A stretch of DNA of 59,876 nt, counting the filler. It is 4 parts of 4 records of this genome, joined end to end, with 100 filler letters (N's around TTAATTAATTAA, not from the genome) between each part and the next. Parts side by side here need not be neighbours in the genome. Positions count along the whole stretch, not along the records: positions 23,446 to 43,443 come from SRR22947725_2406; 3 more parts are not named here. One strand, 5' to 3'. The notes beneath the pieces were generated by a model that was not told where the DNA came from, made no database searches, and saw nothing but the letters and a program-made list of their open reading frames with translations. The position numbers and the translations under genes are program-made. Positions 10,313 through 43,543 of the stretch are shown in pieces. How positions within the stretch are numbered: the stretch's first letter is position 1; every line of letters starts with the position of its first letter.

Positions 10313-10412
10313 NNNNNNNNNNNNNNNNNNNNNNNNNNNNNNNNNNNNNNNNNNNNTTAATTAATTAANNNNNNNNNNNNNNNNNNNNNNNNNNNNNNNN
10401 NNNNNNNNNNNN
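10313..10412. other. Artificial contig spacer
   Basis: N-run with TTAATTAATTAA (stops in six frames); gene content and composition change across it. Confidence 0.98.
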
Positions 10413-12279: not shown

Positions 12280-13068
12280 ATGTCAGCTGAAAAAAAACAT
12301 GATTACCACTTAGTAGACCCAAGTCCTTGGCCTATCTATGTGTCATTCTCTTGCTTAGTGTTAGCAATAGGATTAATTTTCTATATGCATAACGATGTTT
12401 CGTGGGGAATGTATCTTGGTTTAGCATTAGTTTTATATGGTGCTTATATGTGGTTTAGAGATGTTGTAATAGAGGCGGAGCATCAAGGTCATCACACACC
12501 TGTCGTTCAAATTCATCATAGATATGGAATGACATTATTTATTGCATCAGAGGTAATGTTCTTTGTTGCATGGTTCTGGGCGTATTTTGATATCAGCTTA
12601 TTTCCAAATGAATTTGTTGGAAACGTTTGGCCTCCTAAAGATATAGAAACTTTTGATCCTTGGGATATACCACTAATAAATACACTTGTTTTATTGCTAT
12701 CAGGAACAACAGTAACTTGGGCACACCACTCATTAATAGAGGGAGATAGAAAAGGATTTATTCAAGGTCTAACTTTAACTGTTATTTTAGGTTTCTTTTT
12801 CACTTTACTTCAAGCTTACGAATATCATCATGCTACTTTTGATTACTCGGGCCACATTTATGGAGCAGTATTTTATATGGCAACAGGTTTTCATGGGTTT
12901 CATGTTATAATTGGAACAATATTTCTAGCCGTATGTTTAGCTAGAGCTAAAAAAGGACATTTTACAAAAGATCATCATTTCGGATTTGAAGCAGCGGCTT
13001 GGTACTGGCATTTTGTTGATGTAGTTTGGCTGTTCTTATTTGCAGCAATATATGTTTGGGGAAGTTAA
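12280..13068 (+). CDS. ctaE: Cytochrome c oxidase subunit III
   Basis: HDYHLVDPSPWP, SEVMFF, TGFHGFHV, WYWHFVDVVW. Confidence 0.96.
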   Translation: MSAEKKHDYHLVDPSPWPIYVSFSCLVLAIGLIFYMHNDVSWGMYLGLALVLYGAYMWFRDVVIEAEHQGHHTPVVQIHHRYGMTLFIASEVMFFVAWFWAYFDISLFPNEFVGNVWPPKDIETFDPWDIPLINTLVLLLSGTTVTWAHHSLIEGDRKGFIQGLTLTVILGFFFTLLQAYEYHHATFDYSGHIYGAVFYMATGFHGFHVIIGTIFLAVCLARAKKGHFTKDHHFGFEAAAWYWHFVDVVWLFLFAAIYVWGS

Positions 13069-16014: not shown

Positions 16015-16979
16015 TAAATTAAATAATTTTTATAAGAGATTAAGTTATTATGTGTAATAAGCTTTTGATAATATTCATTTGGATCTTTTATTTGTATTAA
16101 AGCAGTTTTGGGAGTATTTGAATAATCGTAAAGTCTAGTAAGCAAATATCTCATTGCAGCACCTCGACATAAAATATTTAATGATTTTTTTTCTTTAAGT
16201 GAAATTTTCTTAATACTCTCGTACCCTTTAATTAAATCTTTTATTTTTTTTTTATTAATTTTAAATTTTGATTTTTTATTATCAAAACACAATGCATTGA
16301 TACAAATAGCTATTTCATACATAAAATAATCATTTGCAGCAAAATAAAAATCAATAATCCCAGATAATTTATTATTTTTAAAAAAAATATTATCAATAAA
16401 TAAATCACCATGAATAATTCCTGAAGGTAATTTTTTTGGCCACCTTTTCTTAATATCTTTTAAATTGTTTATTAAAAATTTTTCTAAATTATTAAATTTT
16501 TTTGATTTAAACTTAATACTTTTTAGCAAAGGATCTAAATATTTAATACCCATTGAGTTTTTTCTAGTTATTTTAATATTTTTAGTTACAGAATGCATTT
16601 GGGCAATTATTTTGCCAACTTCAAAACAATTTTTTGAGTTGAGTTTACTCTTATCTTTTCCTTCTAAGAAAGAGACAATACAAGCTGTTTTGCTTTTTAG
16701 TTTTATCAAATAGTTCCCATTATTATTTTTTAAAGGTTTTGGACAACTAATATTAGAATGATTTAATTCATCCATTAACTTCATGAAAAAAGGAATTTCT
16801 TTATTAGAAACTCTTTTTTCAAAAATAGTTAATATAAATTTTTTATTTTTCGATTTTAGTAAGTAATTAGTATTTTCAATTCCTTTTTTGATACCTTGAA
16901 AACTAACAATCTTTTCAATATCAAATTTATTATTAATGATAGAAATATCTTTTTTATTTATTTTTGTATAAACAGCCAT
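16014..16979 (-). CDS. thrB: Homoserine kinase type II
   Basis: MAVYT, GIENTNY, IHGDLFIDN, LLTRLYD. Confidence 0.93.
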   Translation of the reverse strand: MAVYTKINKKDISIINNKFDIEKIVSFQGIKKGIENTNYLLKSKNKKFILTIFEKRVSNKEIPFFMKLMDELNHSNISCPKPLKNNNGNYLIKLKSKTACIVSFLEGKDKSKLNSKNCFEVGKIIAQMHSVTKNIKITRKNSMGIKYLDPLLKSIKFKSKKFNNLEKFLINNLKDIKKRWPKKLPSGIIHGDLFIDNIFFKNNKLSGIIDFYFAANDYFMYEIAICINALCFDNKKSKFKINKKKIKDLIKGYESIKKISLKEKKSLNILCRGAAMRYLLTRLYDYSNTPKTALIQIKDPNEYYQKLITHNNLISYKNYLI

Positions 16980-18851: not shown

Positions 18852-19916
18852 TTAAATTAGTTGTTTTAAAAAAATCCATTTTGGCATTTTAGAAATTATG
18901 GATACATCTTCTAAAATATTACTTTTATTAGATAAAAAATTTATAACTGTATTAGGCGAACAATTAAACATTTTATAAAATATTTTTGCCATTTTATCTG
19001 GGTTATTTTTTAAAACTTTTAGAAAAATATTGTCTAAAAATTGATATTTTTTTTCTATTGAGAAAATTTTTGTATTTTTTATATTTTCTATATTCTTTCT
19101 AATATATCTGCTTTGCGCTTGAATATTTAAGAATGTATATCCAGTGCTTAACCTTGTCATTCCACCAGCAGTTCCAATTTCAATTTGATTTAATTTTTTA
19201 ATATTAGTTGGATGAAATAAAGGAATAGCACCAGTCTCTTGGAAATTAATTTTATAATTTTTAATCTTTAGTTTGTTTTCAATATAATCTTTTAATTGAA
19301 TATCATAATCTTTTAATGATGCATTATTAAAGTCAGAAATCCACGTAGTTTCTATGAGTGCATTTTTTTTGGAATAGGGTAGCGTATAAAAAAAATGAAC
19401 ACTATTTTTTTGATCACAATCAAAGTCCATCAAGTTAAATATCGTTTCATCAAAAAGATCTTTGCTTGTTTCAATTTCTAAACCCGAAAAGTGCTGCCAT
19501 AAATTACTTTTATTATCCGATGTCTCACTTACACTATTAAAGATGAAAGAATTTTCAGTATTTACTTCATTTATGTTTTTGAAAAAATGAACATTATTGT
19601 TTTGTTTTAACCTACCAATTATCTTGTGATAAAATAAACCGCTATCAATTGATTGATAAGGCATATTTTTACATTCAATATGCTTTAAATGATTTGGGAT
19701 ATTAATTGTAAAGTTATCCCAGCTTTTTTTAACACAGTCATCAAAATTATGAGATGCTACCTTCCAAAAAGACCACGTTTTATCTTTTTTGTATTCATTC
19801 CTAGGTTCAATAATTGCCAAAGATTTATCTTTTAATTTTGAGTGGGTATCTAATTCAAAAGCAAGAGATAGCCCAGCACAACCACCACCAATTATTATAT
19901 AATCAAAGTCTTTCAT
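18852..19916 (-). CDS. crtY: Lycopene beta-cyclase
   Basis: GGGCAGLSLA, DKTWSFW, LMDF, GTAGGMTRLSTGYTF; in the crt-blh cluster. Confidence 0.88.
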   Translation of the reverse strand: MKDFDYIIIGGGCAGLSLAFELDTHSKLKDKSLAIIEPRNEYKKDKTWSFWKVASHNFDDCVKKSWDNFTINIPNHLKHIECKNMPYQSIDSGLFYHKIIGRLKQNNNVHFFKNINEVNTENSFIFNSVSETSDNKSNLWQHFSGLEIETSKDLFDETIFNLMDFDCDQKNSVHFFYTLPYSKKNALIETTWISDFNNASLKDYDIQLKDYIENKLKIKNYKINFQETGAIPLFHPTNIKKLNQIEIGTAGGMTRLSTGYTFLNIQAQSRYIRKNIENIKNTKIFSIEKKYQFLDNIFLKVLKNNPDKMAKIFYKMFNCSPNTVINFLSNKSNILEDVSIISKMPKWIFLKQLI

Positions 19917-23345: not shown

Positions 23346-23445
23346 NNNNNNNNNNNNNNNNNNNNNNNNNNNNNNNNNNNNNNNNNNNNTTAATTAATTA
23401 ANNNNNNNNNNNNNNNNNNNNNNNNNNNNNNNNNNNNNNNNNNNN
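23346..23445. other. Artificial contig spacer
   Basis: N-run with TTAATTAATTAA. Confidence 0.98.
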
Positions 23446-23627
23446 TAAAAGTATAACCGTTTTATCATTATAAGTTGCTCCCCCTATTAGGTTTGAACCA
23501 AATGATTTCCTATAGGGAGAAAAAATTAACTCCGATATAAAAACCACTCCGATTAGGGTTTAAGGGAAAAGTATTTTCTCGGTTACAAGAAACCTCATCT
23601 TTGAAATACTGATATACTAATCAATTC

Positions 23628-23659
23628 AGAAGATTTGAAGAGAGTCTATCAAATCTTCT
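23628..23659. terminator. Hairpin downstream of the HTH gene
   Basis: AGAAGATTTGA / TCAAATCTTCT inverted repeat. Confidence 0.6.
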
Positions 23660-23666
23660 TATTCCT

Positions 23667-23879
23667 TCATTCTGATACACTTTGATTATTTAACCTCTTA
23701 ACTGAAGAATTCCCTTTCAAACTATTCTCCCACTCTAATAAATCCTTTTCTGTGATGTATTTTGAATGAGTTGATACTTCTATCATCTTCAATCCTCTAT
23801 TTTTTCTCCAATCTTCTATGGTTACTCTATCTACTCCGTAGAGTTCCATTAAATCCTTTTTACTCAATCTTCTTTCCAT
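23667..23879 (-). CDS. Excisionase-like helix-turn-helix protein
   Basis: LSKKDLMELYGVDRVTIEDWRKNRGL...YITEKDLLEW fits the MerR/HTH_17-type Xis pattern. Confidence 0.7.
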   Translation of the reverse strand: MERRLSKKDLMELYGVDRVTIEDWRKNRGLKMIEVSTHSKYITEKDLLEWENSLKGNSSVKRLNNQSVSE

Positions 23880-24054
23880 ATACTTTTATCTCTTCTTTCT
23901 CTAATAGTTCTCTAAGTTTTCTTTTATAGGTTTGTTTATCTCCTGATAATCTATACTTCTCTATTCTATGGTAGAAATTCTTAATCAGTTCTGATTTCTT
24001 CTTTAACATATCTACCATATGTCTTGCTTGTTCATCTGTTATCTTTTCTTTCAT
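23860..24054 (-). CDS. Hypothetical 64-aa basic protein
   Basis: ATG ORF overlapping the next gene; same composition as the rest of the element. Confidence 0.55.
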   Translation of the reverse strand: MKEKITDEQARHMVDMLKKKSELIKNFYHRIEKYRLSGDKQTYKRKLRELLEKEEIKVYGKKIE

Positions 24055-24537
24055 ATTATTTCCATTCAGATTTAATTAAAAATGTAATAACCTCGTACTT
24101 GAAATACTTTATCAGTTCGAGGTTGATACTCTTTATTTTAAACTTTTCAGTTGATTTAAGTTAAGTAGTTATTAGATACAGTAATCCCCTTTGAGGGTTT
24201 TTACTCCTTCAGAATAGTGAGTTTTAAATTTCCTCTGACCAGTTAGTTTTCATCCCCCATATCAGATTTATAGTAAAACCATTTTTGTAACTATCGGTGA
24301 AACCTTTTCTGTTATGTTTAGATGTTATTTCAATCCCACAGAATACTAACCAACTTCTAACCCTAATCCTTTCCCCATCTTCGTTTCCTCATCTATGGTT
24401 GTTGGATAAAGGGTGGTCTACTCTGAACCCCTATGATGGAGAGTAGGTTACATCTATAAATATTAGAAACTTTAGAAAACGTAAAGAAAATGAGTAAAAA
24501 AGAAGAAATAACTTCTGCCAAATCTAACAGAGGTTGT

Positions 24538-24612
24538 TAGTACCCTATATTTAGTACCCATAAGATTTTGATAGTACCCTATAGGTACTTAATTTAGTAC
24601 CCAAGGGCACTA
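24538..24612. repeat. TAGTACCC repeats (candidate integrase arm sites, family A)
   Basis: Direct copies at 24538, 24552, 24572 and 24595; degenerate inverted copy GGGCACTA at 24605. Confidence 0.75.
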
Positions 24613-24663
24613 TTATTTTATATAACTAATTGCATATCAGTATATAAAAATATGGTATTGGTA

Positions 24664-24675
24664 CTGGAGGTACCA
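24664..24675 (+). other. Candidate att core resembling the 3' end of a Bacteroidota tRNA-Phe
   Basis: CTGGAGGTACCA followed by a terminator and the integrase; the tRNA-Phe match is from recall and unverified; no full tRNA present. Confidence 0.5.
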
Positions 24676-24682
24676 CTTTAAT

Positions 24683-24726
24683 AACTCTCTAATAAACTGA
24701 ATATTAGTTAATTAGAGAGTTTTTTA
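24683..24726 (+). terminator. Rho-independent terminator after the att core
   Basis: AACTCTCTAAT / ATTAGAGAGTT stem followed by a T-run. Confidence 0.7.
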
Positions 24727-24808
24727 TTGTTCTTAATTCAAAAAAGAACAATATAAAGAACAACTTAACGGTTCATTTTGTAACTTTATAGGGTGTAAAT
24801 AAGAACAA
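24727..24808. repeat. AAGAACAA repeats (candidate integrase arm sites, family B)
   Basis: Inverted copy at 24727; direct copies at 24744, 24756 (12-nt spacing) and 24801. Confidence 0.65.
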
Positions 24809-24811
24809 CCT

Positions 24812-26392
24812 ATGAGTATTTTCTACAAACTTAATTACCTTAAAAAGAAGGAGTTGTACTCACAAGAGGATTCCCTTACAATTCAAGTTGTTTATTACCA
24901 TAGAAAGAAACGAGTTCCATTCACCACCAATGTAGAAGTTAAAATAAAAGATTGGGATGAAAATTGGAGAACTAAAAGAACCAACGAACCTATCTTACCA
25001 TCCGATAGTAATCACAAAACCAAAAACATCTTGTTGTTCCAAAAATGGAAAGAACTGAAAGATGTAATCTTTGAGATTAGAAAGAATGATATGATACCCA
25101 CCACTGATTTGGTTAAATCATACATGAGAAGAGGATTGGTTCAGAAATTAGATGATTCCAATAAAGAGATTCTCTTTGAGATGTATTTAGAGAAGTATTT
25201 AAGTTGGATAAAATCTCCTCAATACTTAATTGAAACGAGAAACTCTCCATCCTATGTAAGAAGTGTTATAGGAAGTGTAAATGATATAATCAGATTCACA
25301 AAAGAATACCAAATCAAAAACTCTATCAAACTCCTACCATCTGATATAAATAAGGATTATACCAACGGACTGATAATTTACTCAGATAAGAGAGGATTAC
25401 AACCCTCAACAATAAAGAAGAGAATAAAAGTTCTTGTAATGTTTAGTAAGTGGTTAGAAGAAAACCATAGGGTTAAAATGGTAGTTTCTAAACCAAAAAG
25501 AGATAAGGATAAAGAAAGGGATATTATTTTCTTTAAGGATGAAGAAATTGTTCTTCTTCATGACTTCAAAGGGTTTGAGTATGAAAGAAATAAGTTTTCT
25601 AAATTCTATCCAAAGGATGTAAAGAAGATTGAATTCTTTTACGATTCACTCAAAAACAATAAAGTAAAAAAATACACTAACTATGAAGTTTATAAAGATT
25701 TACTATTGATGTTATGTGGGTTGGGATTGAGGTTTGTTGATGGAGTAAATCTAAAACTTATCCACTTCAAAGAATTAGATAAGAGAACTAAAAACGAACG
25801 AAGAGATTCTTTCGTTAGGGGTGAGTTTGTTTTAACACCTCAAAAAACCAATGTGATAGTTAGGATTCCCAATACACCCTTAACATGGGAGATATATAAA
25901 AAGTATTCAAGTGGAAAAAACGTAGATGATTATTTATTCCCACGAACATCAAAGGGTAATCCTATATCAAATCAGAAATTCAATAAACACATTAAAGAGA
26001 TTGGAAAAATAGTTGGATTAAATAGAGTAATTCTTAAACCCAAATACGATTGGAATAATCAAGTAGTTAGTGGTTCAGATGAGGTTCAGAGATTACATCA
26101 ACTTATCACATCACACATTGGTAGAAAAACTATGATTAGAACCTATGTTGATGTTGGTTACGATAGAAAAACTATTATGAATATATGTGGTATACAGAAT
26201 TACAAAACACTTGATGTTTATTATGAAACATCCGAGAAGGATAGATTTAAGTTTAACAACCTACTTCATCAAAATATTGATACAAATCTGAAATCTAATG
26301 AAGATGTAATGGATGAGAAGGATAAGTTATTCCAAATGTATAAGAATGGAGATTTAACATGGAACCAATTGGGTAAATTGTTAAATGATTAG
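24812..26392 (+). CDS. Tyrosine recombinase/integrase (Bacteroidota type), alanine-free
   Basis: N-terminal arm-binding-like region; catalytic GLRFVD, QKT, ISNQKFNKHIKEIG, SHIGRKT and terminal Y (LDVYY); zero Ala in 526 aa. Confidence 0.9.
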   Translation: MSIFYKLNYLKKKELYSQEDSLTIQVVYYHRKKRVPFTTNVEVKIKDWDENWRTKRTNEPILPSDSNHKTKNILLFQKWKELKDVIFEIRKNDMIPTTDLVKSYMRRGLVQKLDDSNKEILFEMYLEKYLSWIKSPQYLIETRNSPSYVRSVIGSVNDIIRFTKEYQIKNSIKLLPSDINKDYTNGLIIYSDKRGLQPSTIKKRIKVLVMFSKWLEENHRVKMVVSKPKRDKDKERDIIFFKDEEIVLLHDFKGFEYERNKFSKFYPKDVKKIEFFYDSLKNNKVKKYTNYEVYKDLLLMLCGLGLRFVDGVNLKLIHFKELDKRTKNERRDSFVRGEFVLTPQKTNVIVRIPNTPLTWEIYKKYSSGKNVDDYLFPRTSKGNPISNQKFNKHIKEIGKIVGLNRVILKPKYDWNNQVVSGSDEVQRLHQLITSHIGRKTMIRTYVDVGYDRKTIMNICGIQNYKTLDVYYETSEKDRFKFNNLLHQNIDTNLKSNEDVMDEKDKLFQMYKNGDLTWNQLGKLLND

Positions 26393-26401
26393 ATACAAAT
26401 C

Positions 26402-26506
26402 GGAAGGGGTTGATGTATGTATCATTATAGGTAAATGAACAGTTCCCCTTCCTCATTGTACCTCCCCAATTATTGAAGTTACTGATATGAGATGGTGTAA
26501 TTGGGG
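26402..26506. terminator. Two adjacent long-loop inverted repeats between convergent genes
   Basis: GGAAGGGG/CCCCTTCC (26402-26452) and CCCCAATTA/TAATTGGGG (26464-26506). Confidence 0.5.
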
Positions 26507-26509
26507 TTC

Positions 26510-26803
26510 TTATCTAAATAGTTCGTTCCCCATTTTTGAGAACTTTTCTACTTCTATTTCTTTTCTGATATCGTTGTTCTTAACTGAGTTGAGTTCTACT
26601 ACTCTTTTCTGAAGGAGGAATCCAATAACGGAAACTGAATCAATGATTCTTCGGTTCTTCCACTTTGAGGATTTGAAGAATCCATTCTTTATATATTGGA
26701 ACACAGTTCTTCTACTAACCCCTAACTTTTCAGAACAATCATCTACCGTTATCCATCGGTAAACCTCCAAACCTTCTATTTTTTCTTCAAAGGGATTTTC
26801 CAT
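26510..26803 (-). CDS. Helix-turn-helix DNA-binding protein (excisionase-like)
   Basis: WITVDDCSEKLGVSRRTVFQYIKNG; ATG overlaps the upstream stop. Confidence 0.75.
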   Translation of the reverse strand: MENPFEEKIEGLEVYRWITVDDCSEKLGVSRRTVFQYIKNGFFKSSKWKNRRIIDSVSVIGFLLQKRVVELNSVKNNDIRKEIEVEKFSKMGNELFR

Positions 26804-27321
26804 TACCAAATCTTTCCTTTAAGGTTCTTTACCTCATCAACTATATATCTTCGTTGAGGTGATGTTAGTTGAACATACTCACCCCAATTGATGGAGTAGT
26901 TTTCATCTACTCCACATATTTTAATTAGGTGATTACCACTCCCATCAAAAACAGAAGTTCCATTCTCATCCTTTACAAATCCAATAAGTTTCTTATCACC
27001 TCCTTCACCTATCCATCTGAAAGGAACGATTGAGTTGTAACTTTTATTTACAGAATCCAACTTTTGATTTAATCCCAATGAATAGGATGGTAAGTATTGT
27101 TTCCATTCATTGTATCGTTGGAGGAGGTTTGTAATATCCTTAAAATCCATATCTGTGTTTTCCTTTAGGGTTTTAATGATTCCATCTCTATCTGAGGGAA
27201 TCCAACCTCTTTCACACATATGGTTTAACACCAATACATCGGTGTATTTCATAATTCCTTTGATTCCACTTTCCCTTAGTGTTTGAATCAAACCATCAAT
27301 TTCGTATTCGTTTATTTCCAT
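26803..27321 (-). CDS. Hypothetical protein of the GpC-free element
   Basis: 172-aa ORF with no Ala and no recognised family. Confidence 0.7.
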   Translation of the reverse strand: MEINEYEIDGLIQTLRESGIKGIMKYTDVLVLNHMCERGWIPSDRDGIIKTLKENTDMDFKDITNLLQRYNEWKQYLPSYSLGLNQKLDSVNKSYNSIVPFRWIGEGGDKKLIGFVKDENGTSVFDGSGNHLIKICGVDENYSINWGEYVQLTSPQRRYIVDEVKNLKGKIW

Positions 27322-27415
27322 ATTTCTAATTCTTATTTGTTCATTGAGTGTAATATCATTTCACACTTATAAGTATTAGAGAGTGATTTTTTTTATATTT
27401 TTAAAAAAATTATAG

Positions 27416-28060
27416 ATGTTTAAAAATGTATTTCTGATTGTTCTACTGGCATTTTCAATTACAAATTATGCCCAAAAAACAAATCTACCTGGTAAACTAC
27501 TATGGGTAAATGGAAACCTTCCTGAAAACTCAAGTTATTTTAATTATAAAGTTGTCCAAGGAGATGGAGAAAGTCTAAAAAAATCTCAGGACAACGCTGT
27601 CTCATCTCTATTATTTGAACTAGCAAGTGAACAAAAAATTAATATCACATACGAAGCTATTTCATCAACTCAAGAATTAATCAGAAACAATAATGAAAGT
27701 TCTTACTCAATAGATTTCAAAGACAAATCAAAAATAAACAGTTCCTTTACCGCTATATTTTCAAAAGTTGACGAATATTTTGAAATCTTGGATGATTTAA
27801 GTGGTGAGAAAATATACAGAACTTGGCAATTGTATGTTGTTGGAGAAGAAGCAAAACGTATAATCCCAAAATTAAACTACACAAATAAATATTCTTTCTC
27901 AGAAGCTGGATACAAATCGTTATTAGTACCAGGATGGGGTCAATTTCACAAAAAACAAAACACAAAAGGATTTTTGTTTTTAGTTGCAGGAATTGGTTCA
28001 AACTCCCTCATCTGTTTCTACATTAAGAGCATTACCATAAGTTGTACCAATTTGATTTGA
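27416..28060 (+). CDS. Exported hypothetical protein (DUF5683-like motif), probably truncated near 27995
   Basis: Signal peptide; SLLVPGWGQF motif; C-terminal tail overlaps an antisense FN3 remnant. Confidence 0.6.
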   Translation: MFKNVFLIVLLAFSITNYAQKTNLPGKLLWVNGNLPENSSYFNYKVVQGDGESLKKSQDNAVSSLLFELASEQKINITYEAISSTQELIRNNNESSYSIDFKDKSKINSSFTAIFSKVDEYFEILDDLSGEKIYRTWQLYVVGEEAKRIIPKLNYTNKYSFSEAGYKSLLVPGWGQFHKKQNTKGFLFLVAGIGSNSLICFYIKSITISCTNLI

Positions 28061-33271: not shown

Positions 33272-33502
33272 ATGGGGCAACAGGTGGTTTTAAGTTTTTT
33301 TTCTTACGATAAAAACAAGTTTTGGGCATTCACCCAAATGCAACGCGCCATCCCACAATTACAACAACAACCTGGTATACAGTTTTTCAGAACCCTTGGT
33401 ACAGGTGCCGGTTTGGGCTTTAGCCTATGGCCTGACTTTTCGACCTATGCACTGCTTACCATTTTTAGTGGATTTAAGACCTCTTCACCAGTTATTCAAT
33501 GA
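33272..33502 (+). pseudogene. N-terminal fragment of a CrtA/spheroidene-monooxygenase-like protein, interrupted near 33460
   Basis: WAFTQMQ...PGIQFFRTLGTGAGLGFSLWPDFSTYALL, then unrelated sequence and a stop. Confidence 0.6.
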
Positions 33503-33658
33503 TTGAACCGTTACATTTAATACCTTAGAGACTTCATTTCGGGTTAAATATTCGGTGTCCTCACCAGTAATTGTCAACCTGTTTAATGGTTTTCCAATTG
33601 ATCGTTGACGATTCAGTTCCAATTTAACACCTTCTTTGATTATGCCGACCAAGGATAA
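33458..33658 (-). pseudogene. Decayed excisionase-like HTH gene
   Basis: Own translation ...EYLTRNEVSKVLNVTVQSLNNW-stop, continuing VLNPLK after a frameshift. Confidence 0.65.
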
Positions 33659-33997
33659 TATATGGCGAGAATACTGGTTGCTCGAGAGGTTGCTCCACAG
33701 GTTTAAATCCTTGTTATTTCGTTTGATTTCTATTTACTATCCCCGCTGGCGCGCGTCTGCCTATCGGTAGACAGCGTGCTAAACCTATAAAAGCCTGGTG
33801 TTATTAATAAATCGAGTATGAAATTGAAAGGTTTCATAAGCAGGTATTGGGTTACCTAAAGACACAATTTTTTTGAGTTGTGCTTGTCGCTTATTAGTTG
33901 GCAGGTCTGTATTAGCAGAGTTTTTGCGCTTTACCCCTAATACCAACAAATACAGTCAGTTGTTATCCAATTGTTTCGCTAACCATTTGTAAGACAC

Positions 33998-43443: not shown

Positions 43444-43543
43444 NNNNNNNNNNNNNNNNNNNNNNNNNNNNNNNNNNNNNNNNNNNNTTAATTAATTAAN
43501 NNNNNNNNNNNNNNNNNNNNNNNNNNNNNNNNNNNNNNNNNNN
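43444..43543. other. Artificial contig spacer
   Basis: N-run with TTAATTAATTAA. Confidence 0.98.

Follow-up and report, generated by a model that had tools for sequence, protein, structure and literature searches.

The DNA analyzed in this work, called the window throughout, is a stretch of 59,876 nucleotides. It consists of four contigs with linkers of the form N44-TTAATTAATTAA-N44 between them (10313-10412, 23346-23445 and 43444-43543). The contig which begins at 23446 carries the end of one tRNA-integrating element followed by the integrase module of a second one (Table 1). Five open reading frames (ORFs) located between 23667 and 27321 encode a tyrosine integrase, two helix-turn-helix (HTH) proteins resembling the HTH_17 family, a 172-aa protein and a putative 64-aa protein. 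Together these ORFs contain 1 alanine in 931 residues, while about 62 are expected on the basis of the 6.69% alanine found in the host ORFs flanking related loci. The original prediction for this region had described the five proteins as nearly free of alanine, and both their coordinates and their alanine counts were confirmed. Alanine is almost absent because the DNA of these ORFs lacks the dinucleotide GC (here "GC" always denotes the dinucleotide, and "G+C" the base composition).

For the GC-free run which spans the module about 80 GCs would be expected and none was observed. To its left only five GCs occur in 23446-24632, at positions 23477, 24026, 24517, 24607 and 24632. Elsewhere in the window neighboring GCs are at most 325 bp apart, and among the other dinucleotides CG has the largest gap, with 631 bp. 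The observed/expected ratio of GC is 0.05 in the island, and the window's other contigs show 1.15-1.36.

Table 1: Features of the GC-depleted island in the window (aa, amino acids; att, attachment site).
Feature	Position	Strand	Remarks
Right end of upstream GC-poor element	23446..24663		5 GC in 1.2 kb; contig starts inside the element; ends at att core
Non-coding conserved repeat, ~90-110 nt	23502..23612	+	marks module borders inside GC-free tracts
HTH_17-like protein, 70 aa	23667..23879	-	0 alanine; Pfam HTH_17 26.9 bits, cut-off 27
Candidate ORF, 64 aa	23860..24054	-	sole alanine of the five ORFs (GC at 24026); orphan
GC-free run	24633..27448		2,816 bp without GC; flanking GCs at 24632 and 27449, gap 2,817 bp
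12-bp att core CTGGAGGTACCA	24664..24675	+	identical to tRNA-Phe(GAA) 3' end; sole exact copy in the window
Integrase module (genes of the integrase, 99-aa and 172-aa proteins)	24664..27391		unit recurring in other assemblies
Tyrosine integrase, 526 aa	24812..26392	+	0 alanine; Pfam PF00589 27.9 bits, cut-off 27.1 (marginal)
HTH_17-like protein, 99 aa	26510..26809	-	0 alanine; Pfam HTH_17 (PF12728) 25.8 bits, cut-off 27
172-aa protein	26803..27321	-	0 alanine; always beside the 99-aa gene; no assigned family

The Pfam family PF00589 is precomputed for most relatives of the integrase. Residues R307, K345, H435 and Y470 were found in all 118 sequences of the family and R438 in 117 of them; the protein of the window possesses all five. 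In an alignment with PDB entries its H-x-x-R motif and its Tyr fall on those of a XerC-like protein and of XerA. A second conserved His (or Trp) in front of the Tyr is lacking: position 461 (26192-26194 of the window) is occupied by Ile in this protein and in its 7 closest cluster representatives, and by His in 110 of the 118 sequences. This Ile-461 clade (8 of 118) nonetheless shows a ratio of nonsynonymous to synonymous substitutions (dN/dS) of about 0.05. An AlphaFold2 model of the integrase reached a predicted local distance difference test (pLDDT) score of 87.1. Foldseek matched this model with a probability of 1.00 and E-values between 6e-8 and 3e-5 to XerA, Tn1549 Int, Cre, XerH, IntI and lambda Int, the TM-score by target being up to 0.64. 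Thus, the modeled integrase has the tyrosine-recombinase fold, in agreement with its original annotation. Indirect signs of recombination were also obtained, namely direct repeats of the att site in relatives and the occurrence of the same module in differing contexts; the enzyme is probably active. A search of GenBank phages revealed no close relative of the integrase or of the resolvase found in related elements (identity at most 37%).

The two HTH_17-like proteins lack alanine at two positions of the HTH_17 consensus, which may lower their profile scores. The cluster of the 99-aa protein comprises 36 members from 35 loci with no alanine in 3,377 residues, and an excision or regulatory factor is its likely function. 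For the 70-aa protein 24 members from 24 loci were found, with 1 alanine in 1,438 residues. The 172-aa protein (34 members from 33 loci, no alanine in 6,117 residues) gave no match to Pfam or PHROG. Its AlphaFold2 model (pLDDT 86.2) showed no convincing similarity to PDB structures in Foldseek (best E-value 0.11), and the best Z of 6.5 obtained with VIA-align over 48,161 chains lies inside the stated noise of that tool. The 64-aa candidate ORF had no Pfam match and remained a singleton in the clustering.

The module is not restricted to the window. A metagenome contig (L030:52-2787) is 98.6% identical to it over 2,736 bp with both flanks unrelated, and a locus in a metagenome-assembled genome (MAG) of the Flavobacteriaceae (L003:9852-12557) is 73% identical. 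Contigs from a sequencing library of RNA match parts of the three genes of the module; their source may be DNA carry-over. In the loci L001, L003, L005 and L030 the left end of the module abuts tRNA-Phe(GAA), and the junction corresponds to the last 12 bp of the tRNA. The contigs of runs X3, X13 and X14 likewise extend leftwards from 24664 into tRNA sequence. In the complete elements L046, L049 and L060 the 12-bp core is present at both ends. The window contains one core and no tRNA gene, because its contig starts inside the upstream element. The segment left of the core shares no homology with the DNA flanking the module on the left in L001, L003, L005 and L030, where the tRNA stands instead. 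Since it is the GC-poor end of another element, the window contains a tandem array whose upstream member is cut by the contig start. A contig of the independent run X5 spans 24516-24676; consequently, the junction is not an assembly artefact of the window. Two relatives with 38-41% integrase identity lie beside tRNA-Met(CAT) (L085:9793-9867 and L107:9792-9868) and are equally GC-free, with 8.3 and 8.8 kb, respectively, without a single GC.

In order to determine the extent of the GC-free state, 83 loci related to the module were fetched. Of these, 81 were counted, since L031 duplicates L003 as another record, and the analysis of L002 was made as L005. Many of the 81 loci are closely related, so their number does not equal that of independent events; integrase identities of 37-100% show the depth of the trait. 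The integrase gene contains no GC in 73 of the 81 loci. Exceptions include L042 and L043 with 10 and 4 GCs, respectively, in this gene. The longest GC-free run measures at least 2 kb in 65 loci, at least 5 kb in 26, at least 8 kb in 10 and at least 11 kb in 4. The tract begins 150-190 bp upstream of the integrase gene, within the 3' end of the tRNA, and the GC-free state extends from there over 2-12 kb. The tract cores contain 259 GCs in 454,311 bp (0.57 per kb) and the flanks 6,390 in 192,839 bp (33.1 per kb), which corresponds to a depletion of about 58-fold. The 617 non-overlapping ORFs of the tracts encode 100 alanines in 136,897 residues.

The same picture emerged from the integrase proteins. 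Clusters were represented by 181 sequences with E-values of at most 0.001, of which 120 with identities from 99% down to 33% were listed. No alanine was found in 90 of these 120 and at most three in 118. At an E-value of at most 1e-30, 96 representatives of 50% clusters were obtained. Most full-length integrases of the family have 0-3 alanines, and some distant full-length ones have 7-19. Ordinary integrases of about 410 aa, which match the catalytic half only, have a median of 4.6% alanine, and viral outgroup integrases have 2.7-8.3% even at 28-32% G+C.

Among 301 sampled genomes of the host family the integrase is present in four, all of 1.8-2.2 Mb. In the MAG G002 the depleted array measures about 18.6 kb and contains one GC in its first 13.2 kb. 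On the 432 kb read of its contig C4 the island at 244.8-263.4 kb is the sole place with at most 8 GCs per kb. In two of the four genomes, G139 and G221, the depletion is only partial. Cassettes of intermediate GC density (about 10-30 per kb, compared to 33-45 in the hosts) adjoin GC-free ones at L030:4000-7000, G139:C1:863000-868500 and G221:C4:73500-78000; they may represent either fresh cargo which is still being purged or old immobile remnants which are regaining GC. The carriers are pelagic Flavobacteriaceae with small genomes, and the elements measure about 2.7 to 9 kb each, with arrays of up to 18.6 kb.

The level at which the constraint acts was deduced from codon counts in ORFs of at least 80 aa, which were taken from the GC-depleted tracts of 82 related loci and of the window. 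In 127,945 codons of the elements 83 GCs fall on codon positions 1 and 2, 40 on positions 2 and 3 and 34 on the border between codons (3-1). The corresponding numbers for 43,905 codons of the flanking host DNA were 2,939, 782 and 892. Not only the alanine codons but also AGC, GGC, TGC and CGC are nearly unused in the ORFs of the elements. The four alanine-free ORFs of the window contain no GC in any codon phase. Intergenic DNA of the tracts is GC-depleted too, and the depletion extends to each of the ten NGCN contexts. Because GC is absent from every codon phase and from intergenic DNA, the constraint acts on the nucleic acid and not on alanine. The original prediction had not recognized that every codon phase and the DNA between genes fall under the ban, over whole elements of up to 18.6 kb, nor that other palindromic words are affected. 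No context rule such as RGCY was apparent among the surviving GCs.

These additional words became visible when the tetranucleotides of the tracts were compared to a Markov expectation. The lowest observed/expected ratios were those of GATC (0.09), CTAG (0.27), CCGG (0.41), CATG (0.41), ACGT (0.46), TCGA (0.51) and GTAC (0.53), which are all the 4-bp palindromes that contain G and C without containing GC. The same seven words gave 0.69-0.99 in the flanks, and palindromes composed of A and T only were not avoided in the tracts (0.88-1.0). The module itself contains no GATC, CTAG, CCGG or TCGA.

A nucleic acid constraint could in principle concern RNA instead of DNA. GC-free transcripts might resist an endoribonuclease toxin which cuts triplets containing GC, so that the genes of the element stay expressed while the mRNAs of host and phage are degraded. 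GC is its own reverse complement; therefore, a ban at the RNA level would also look strand-symmetric. Furthermore, we estimate the surviving GCs to be about 3.5 times denser outside ORFs (157 in about 384 kb of ORFs, compared to about 102 in about 70 kb). Nevertheless, the non-coding DNA of the tracts is still depleted more than 20-fold, up to the att core, and an RNase does not explain the avoidance of DNA palindromes which lack GC. Escape at the RNA level is thus very unlikely.

The original prediction had further claimed that the proteins were kept functional by selection under a hard ban on GC. In order to examine this, dN/dS was calculated by the Nei-Gojobori method with a script of our own for pairs with 0.05 < dS < 1.2. 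Median values of 0.097 and 0.095 were obtained for the integrase (311 pairs) and the resolvase (83 pairs), respectively; those of the 99-aa and 172-aa proteins were 0.154 (90 pairs) and 0.167 (60 pairs). For the integrase of the window and its relatives of 79-86% identity dN/dS was about 0.05 at a dS of 1.5-2.3. Synonymous sites are thus saturated and have turned over completely without a single GC arising. Together with the conservation of the catalytic residues and the presence of the trait in relatives of as little as 33% identity, the low median ratio of the integrase bore out this part of the prediction: the proteins are under strong purifying selection.

Which residues occupy former alanine positions was analyzed next to relatives that still contain alanine. 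An analysis of alanine columns with viral integrases of 25% identity yielded two qualifying columns, which was too noisy, and was replaced by comparisons with alanine-bearing full-length relatives and by alignments of the resolvase and of PDB entries. Opposite 118 alanines of the alanine-bearing relatives a broad spectrum was observed: K (12%), E (9%), S (8%), I, V and R (7% each), Q and L (6% each), G and H (5% each), and T, M and C (4% each). Gly, Ser and Cys together account for 16.6% at these positions, compared to a background of 11.8%. The replacement by Gly, Ser or Cys postulated in the original prediction therefore holds at tightly constrained columns and does not describe the proteins as a whole, in which many different residues are used. 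Such constrained columns are H-I-G-R, which is found in all members of the integrase family, and two HTH positions of the 99-aa family, of which one carries C (18 sequences) or L (9) and the next one S (27). In the 70-aa HTH family the same two positions are occupied by L and by K, M, Q or C. The resolvase has YSRVS in place of YARVS and CSGS in place of ASGS (TDKASGS -> ..CSGS). At 11 alanine positions of gamma-delta resolvase the protein of the elements shows S, N, F, C, I, E, T, S, F, R and S.

Two specific patterns were looked for in these data and were absent. Val and Thr, whose dominance would be a sign of deamination, account for 11.7% at former alanine positions versus 12.2% in the background, and no single codon or residue stands for alanine, as recoding would require. 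Thus, neither deamination nor recoding is favored. The latter belongs to a group of trivial explanations in which an assembly or sequencing error, a misread modified base or a codon reassigned to alanine merely simulates the GC-free state. We found nothing in favor of this. The same state recurs in assemblies of independent origin (JGI, ENA, Logan, NCBI and TARA), 13 runs from about 8 studies contain half or more of the words of the module, and the proteins are open and conserved under translation table 11. Accordingly, such an artefact can hardly be assigned any probability. The integrase of the window would, if active, be a natural enzyme built from 19 amino acids.

A more substantial alternative is mutational erosion. 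A GpC methyltransferase combined with deamination, or a DNA deaminase preferring GC contexts and acting, for example, on a single-stranded transfer intermediate, might have destroyed the GCs at a higher rate than new ones appear, with selection afterwards only preserving the function of the proteins. Depletion at the level of the dinucleotide irrespective of context would fit such a process. The intermediate cassettes, of which L030:4000-7000 contains about 10 GCs per kb with G139 and G221 being similar, could be stages of erosion, and the more distant full-length integrases with 7-19 alanines would also be in line with it. The substitution patterns point in another direction. Opposite the surviving GCs the states GT (28), AC (22), TC (22), GA (21), AT (11), CC (8) and GG (4) were counted, which means 50 transition versus 55 single-step transversion states. 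Among the compensating dinucleotides GT/AC increased least (tract/flank ratio of 1.11, compared to 1.31 for GA/TC and 1.24 for CC/GG). The missing enrichment of Val and Thr and the varied replacements in the resolvase argue against erosion as well. Moreover, the complete absence of GC over 11 kb at saturated dS would require a rate about 60-100 times that of the background, the avoidance of palindromes would be left unexplained, and C5-cytosine methyltransferase (PF00145) was found in none of three incomplete host MAGs. We therefore consider erosion to be quite improbable.

Depletion of short palindromes is the textbook mark of selection against restriction sites in DNA which enters cells unprotected. 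Since the palindrome avoidance in the tracts is of this restriction type, we read the ban on GC as the extreme end of the same pressure. The explanation which we favor, with a probability of roughly 0.55, is long-term selection against GC-containing targets of DNA-cutting defenses, with the loss of alanine as a side effect. The family consists of small integrative elements which insert at the 3' end of tRNA-Phe, or of tRNA-Met in some relatives. According to this model they would often arrive in new cells without protection, and a defense which cuts DNA at specific sequences would kill any entering element that offers it a target containing GC. The defense might belong to the restriction-modification systems or might be a different nuclease with a recognition that reduces to G-C, and elements without the word GC would survive. 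Alanine (GCN) would disappear as a by-product, together with the codons AGC, GGC, TGC and CGC, and the proteins would have adapted with Ser, Cys, Gly or Thr at packed former alanine sites and with varied residues elsewhere while keeping their function. The agent would hence be a defense that targets DNA, and a single agent of nearly dinucleotide specificity is implied.

Several observations weigh against selection by DNA-cutting defenses. Ordinary restriction avoidance targets specific sites of 4-8 bp and does not explain the equal loss of the non-palindromic AGCA/TGCT. The most tolerated context among the few surviving GCs is the palindrome TGCA. GG/CC is enriched in the tracts (observed/expected 1.45), which restriction avoidance leaves unexplained. 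The host flanks show only mild palindrome avoidance (0.68-1.12). No GC-specific nuclease or methyltransferase was identified in hosts or elements, although restriction endonuclease families were not searched; the three host MAGs without PF00145 are incomplete, and this was the only restriction-modification family searched there. Relaxase, capsid and packaging genes were not recognized in 36 scanned proteins, whose lack of alanine may lead to poor scores. In IMG/VR the integrase profile retrieved only outgroups of 25-38% identity with normal alanine and GC and no member of the family, and neither the profile of the 172-aa protein nor the DUF5906 protein found a match.

Going one step further, we tentatively suggest, at somewhat less than even odds, that pelagic Flavobacteriaceae or their phages possess an undescribed DNA-targeting agent which in effect recognizes no more than the dinucleotide G-C, and that a functional proteome of 19 amino acids in a lineage of mobile elements has resulted from it. 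This proteome would comprise more than 200 gene clusters including integrases, serine recombinases, GNAT and HNH proteins and proteins similar to primases/helicases.

The gene content of the elements is dominated by the trio also present in the window, that is, the integrase (90 members), the 99-aa HTH protein (36) and the 172-aa protein (34). The next most common genes encode a serine recombinase/invertase (31 loci), HTH_17-like proteins of 57-70 aa (24) and a 133-aa protein (19). Cargo genes with known families encode GNAT acetyltransferases, HNH endonucleases, DUF5906 primase/helicase-like proteins, DUF285, MORN repeats and DUF6150. A ParB_N and N6_N4 DNA methyltransferase is found in 14 loci at the edges of the arrays and is only partly GC-depleted (28 alanines in 5,601 residues); in L049 (8176-9540) it lies just outside the att-bounded element. 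The ten largest ORFs of the 18.6-kb array in G002 gave no significant match to Pfam or PHROG. For the serine recombinase 1,634 homologues were obtained at an E-value of at most 1e-10. The best 120 of these, with at least 70% identity, contain no alanine in 90 cases, one in 27 and two in 3. An alanine-free serine recombinase of 71% identity (P0296, available as protein only) is encoded on a 2.2-Mb contig of an isolate named Gracilimonas by NCBI, and the elements may thus reach past the Flavobacteriaceae and into a cultured strain.

These genes also bear on the possibility that the elements, or a helper phage which mobilizes them, are the attackers. They might deploy an endonuclease cutting at GC against the DNA of hosts or competitors and be immune because they contain no site themselves. 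A parallel would be those phages that shield their own DNA with modified bases. A ban on the bare dinucleotide in all contexts, coinciding exactly with the mobile DNA, is what such a weapon would produce. HNH cargo recurs (HNH_2 in 4 loci, a 361-aa protein similar to HNH/homing endonucleases in 6 and HNH_repeat in 3), and the combination of integrase, small HTH proteins and DUF5906 primase/helicase-like protein resembles phage satellites. However, no nuclease is universal in the family. The minimal module is GC-free, yet the model of its 172-aa protein shows no nuclease-like fold. The co-avoidance of GATC, CTAG, CCGG and the other palindromes would require a second explanation, and no member of the family or helper was found in IMG/VR or among GenBank phages. 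On balance, this possibility appears unlikely to us. Selection imposed by DNA-cutting defenses of the recipient cells remains the explanation we prefer.

Avoidance of sites by mobile DNA is a known process. Restriction-site avoidance in phages, plasmids and mobile DNA has reportedly been described by Sharp in 1986, by Gelfand and Koonin in 1997 and by Rocha, Danchin and Viari in 2001, and staphylococcal phage K is reported to lack GATC. The elements described here agree with these cases in that mobile DNA with sharp borders is depleted of short palindromes containing G and C relative to both a Markov expectation and the host. They differ in losing a whole dinucleotide in every context, about 58-fold and often down to zero over 8-12 kb, and in a coding repertoire which loses one amino acid and four further codons. 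We know of no case in which site avoidance has removed an amino acid. CpG depletion, as known from vertebrate genomes and from viruses whose CpG is recognized by ZAP, a protein of the host, is similarly a bias at the dinucleotide level tied to a factor that recognizes two bases. In contrast to the elements, it is partial and is accompanied by an excess of transition products, and CpG is required for no amino acid. The loss of GC is nearly total, shows no excess of transitions and leaves alanine unencodable. Proteins able to recognize G-C with little or no flanking specificity, as the ban implies, do exist: the chlorovirus enzymes M.CviPI, which methylates GpC, and R.CviJI, which cuts at RGCY, have a very short specificity centered on GC. 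No relative of these enzymes turned up here, although none was searched for. Unlike the sites of R.CviJI, the surviving GC contexts of the elements follow no RGCY rule.

Regarding the integrases, PF17293, PF13102 and PF00589 are precomputed for many relatives. The element integrases share with other Bacteroidota tyrosine integrases of these families, which have an arm-binding N-terminus, the catalytic residues, the fold, the use of a tRNA 3' end and 12-bp direct repeats. Ordinary Bacteroidota integrases have about 410 aa, whereas those of the elements are about 100 residues longer and nearly free of alanine (0-3 in 118 of the 120 listed representatives). The VEIMEs, which are marine phage satellites of bacterioplankton including Flavobacteria (bioRxiv 10.1101/2022.07.26.501625), and islands similar to the phage-inducible chromosomal islands (PICI) are likewise small integrative elements, whose genes encode an integrase, small proteins that bind DNA and a protein resembling primases/helicases. 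In contrast, no packaging or capsid genes were recognized in the elements presented here, and no members were found in viral contig collections. The consulted passages of the preprint mention neither a dinucleotide bias nor alanine; an overlap with the elements is possible. A full-text literature search, to which subscription journals and supplements did not belong, gave no report of GC-free or alanine-free elements. To the extent of this search, no earlier case is known in which a conserved proteome of many genes has lost a whole dinucleotide and with it an amino acid.

The elements provide a natural set of hundreds of conserved and selected proteins that lack alanine, a residue which otherwise ranks among the most frequent, and this set includes well-studied enzymes such as tyrosine and serine recombinases, GNAT and HNH proteins. 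By position-wise comparison with solved relatives it can be tested on natural sequences which residues replace alanine, and where. If the interpretation is correct, this represents a natural long-running experiment in which alanine is dispensable for many folds. From a ban on the bare dinucleotide it also follows that, in bacteria abundant in the ocean, a selective agent acts whose specificity is exceptionally short; its identification would add a new kind of defense or weapon. In addition, GC-free and palindrome-poor DNA offers a recipe for genetic tools that evade restriction in Bacteroidota which are hard to transform, and a simple scan for long GC-free runs detects the elements with sharp borders.

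Within the upstream element of the window lies the conserved non-coding repeat (Table 1). It was found in 54 copies in 41 of 83 sources, all of them within tracts, and often follows directly after the integrase gene or after the trio of integrase, HTH and 172-aa genes. Copies in L005 are located at 2619-2707, 12547-12652, 16328-16422 and 19433-19519. The repeat is 75-90% conserved among elements whose integrases share only about 40% identity, and a sequence similar to ACTCCGAT occurs in it as two direct copies. The integrase may use the repeat as an arm-type binding site. No Rfam match and no consensus RNA structure were obtained for it. A 15-mer of the repeat matched 120 viral stretches, none of which is GC-free. 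One of these, on an IMG/VR contig of 74.5 kb with normal GC content (L179:133-178), extends to a 47-nt match of 89% to the repeat, which is possibly a lead to a helper phage or else due to chance.

The remaining parts of the window differ in composition. Contigs 1 and 2 have 27-34% G+C with a CpG observed/expected ratio of about 0.45, and contig 4 as well as the right-hand portion of contig 3 have 40-45% G+C with a ratio of about 0.85-0.95; they may stem from different organisms within one bin. To the right of the module an ORF of 214 aa (27416-28060) with a start resembling a signal peptide, a weak DUF5683 match and moderate GC (13 in 700 bp) was found. At about 28,060 the G+C content rises from 30% to 41%, and 27502-28008 is covered by none of four sequencing runs examined. 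This jump may mark a border of the island or an assembly join. Since the host contig of G002 itself has 40% G+C, our suspicion of a chimera was dropped, and the jump may simply be the border of the island. Finally, 6 kb to the right of the island, positions 33452-33740 are 88-91% identical to the DNA which separates the tRNA from the element in L066, L067, L071, L072 and L081. On the minus strand this segment reads like the end of an HTH_17-type gene, and it may be the relic of a related cassette.

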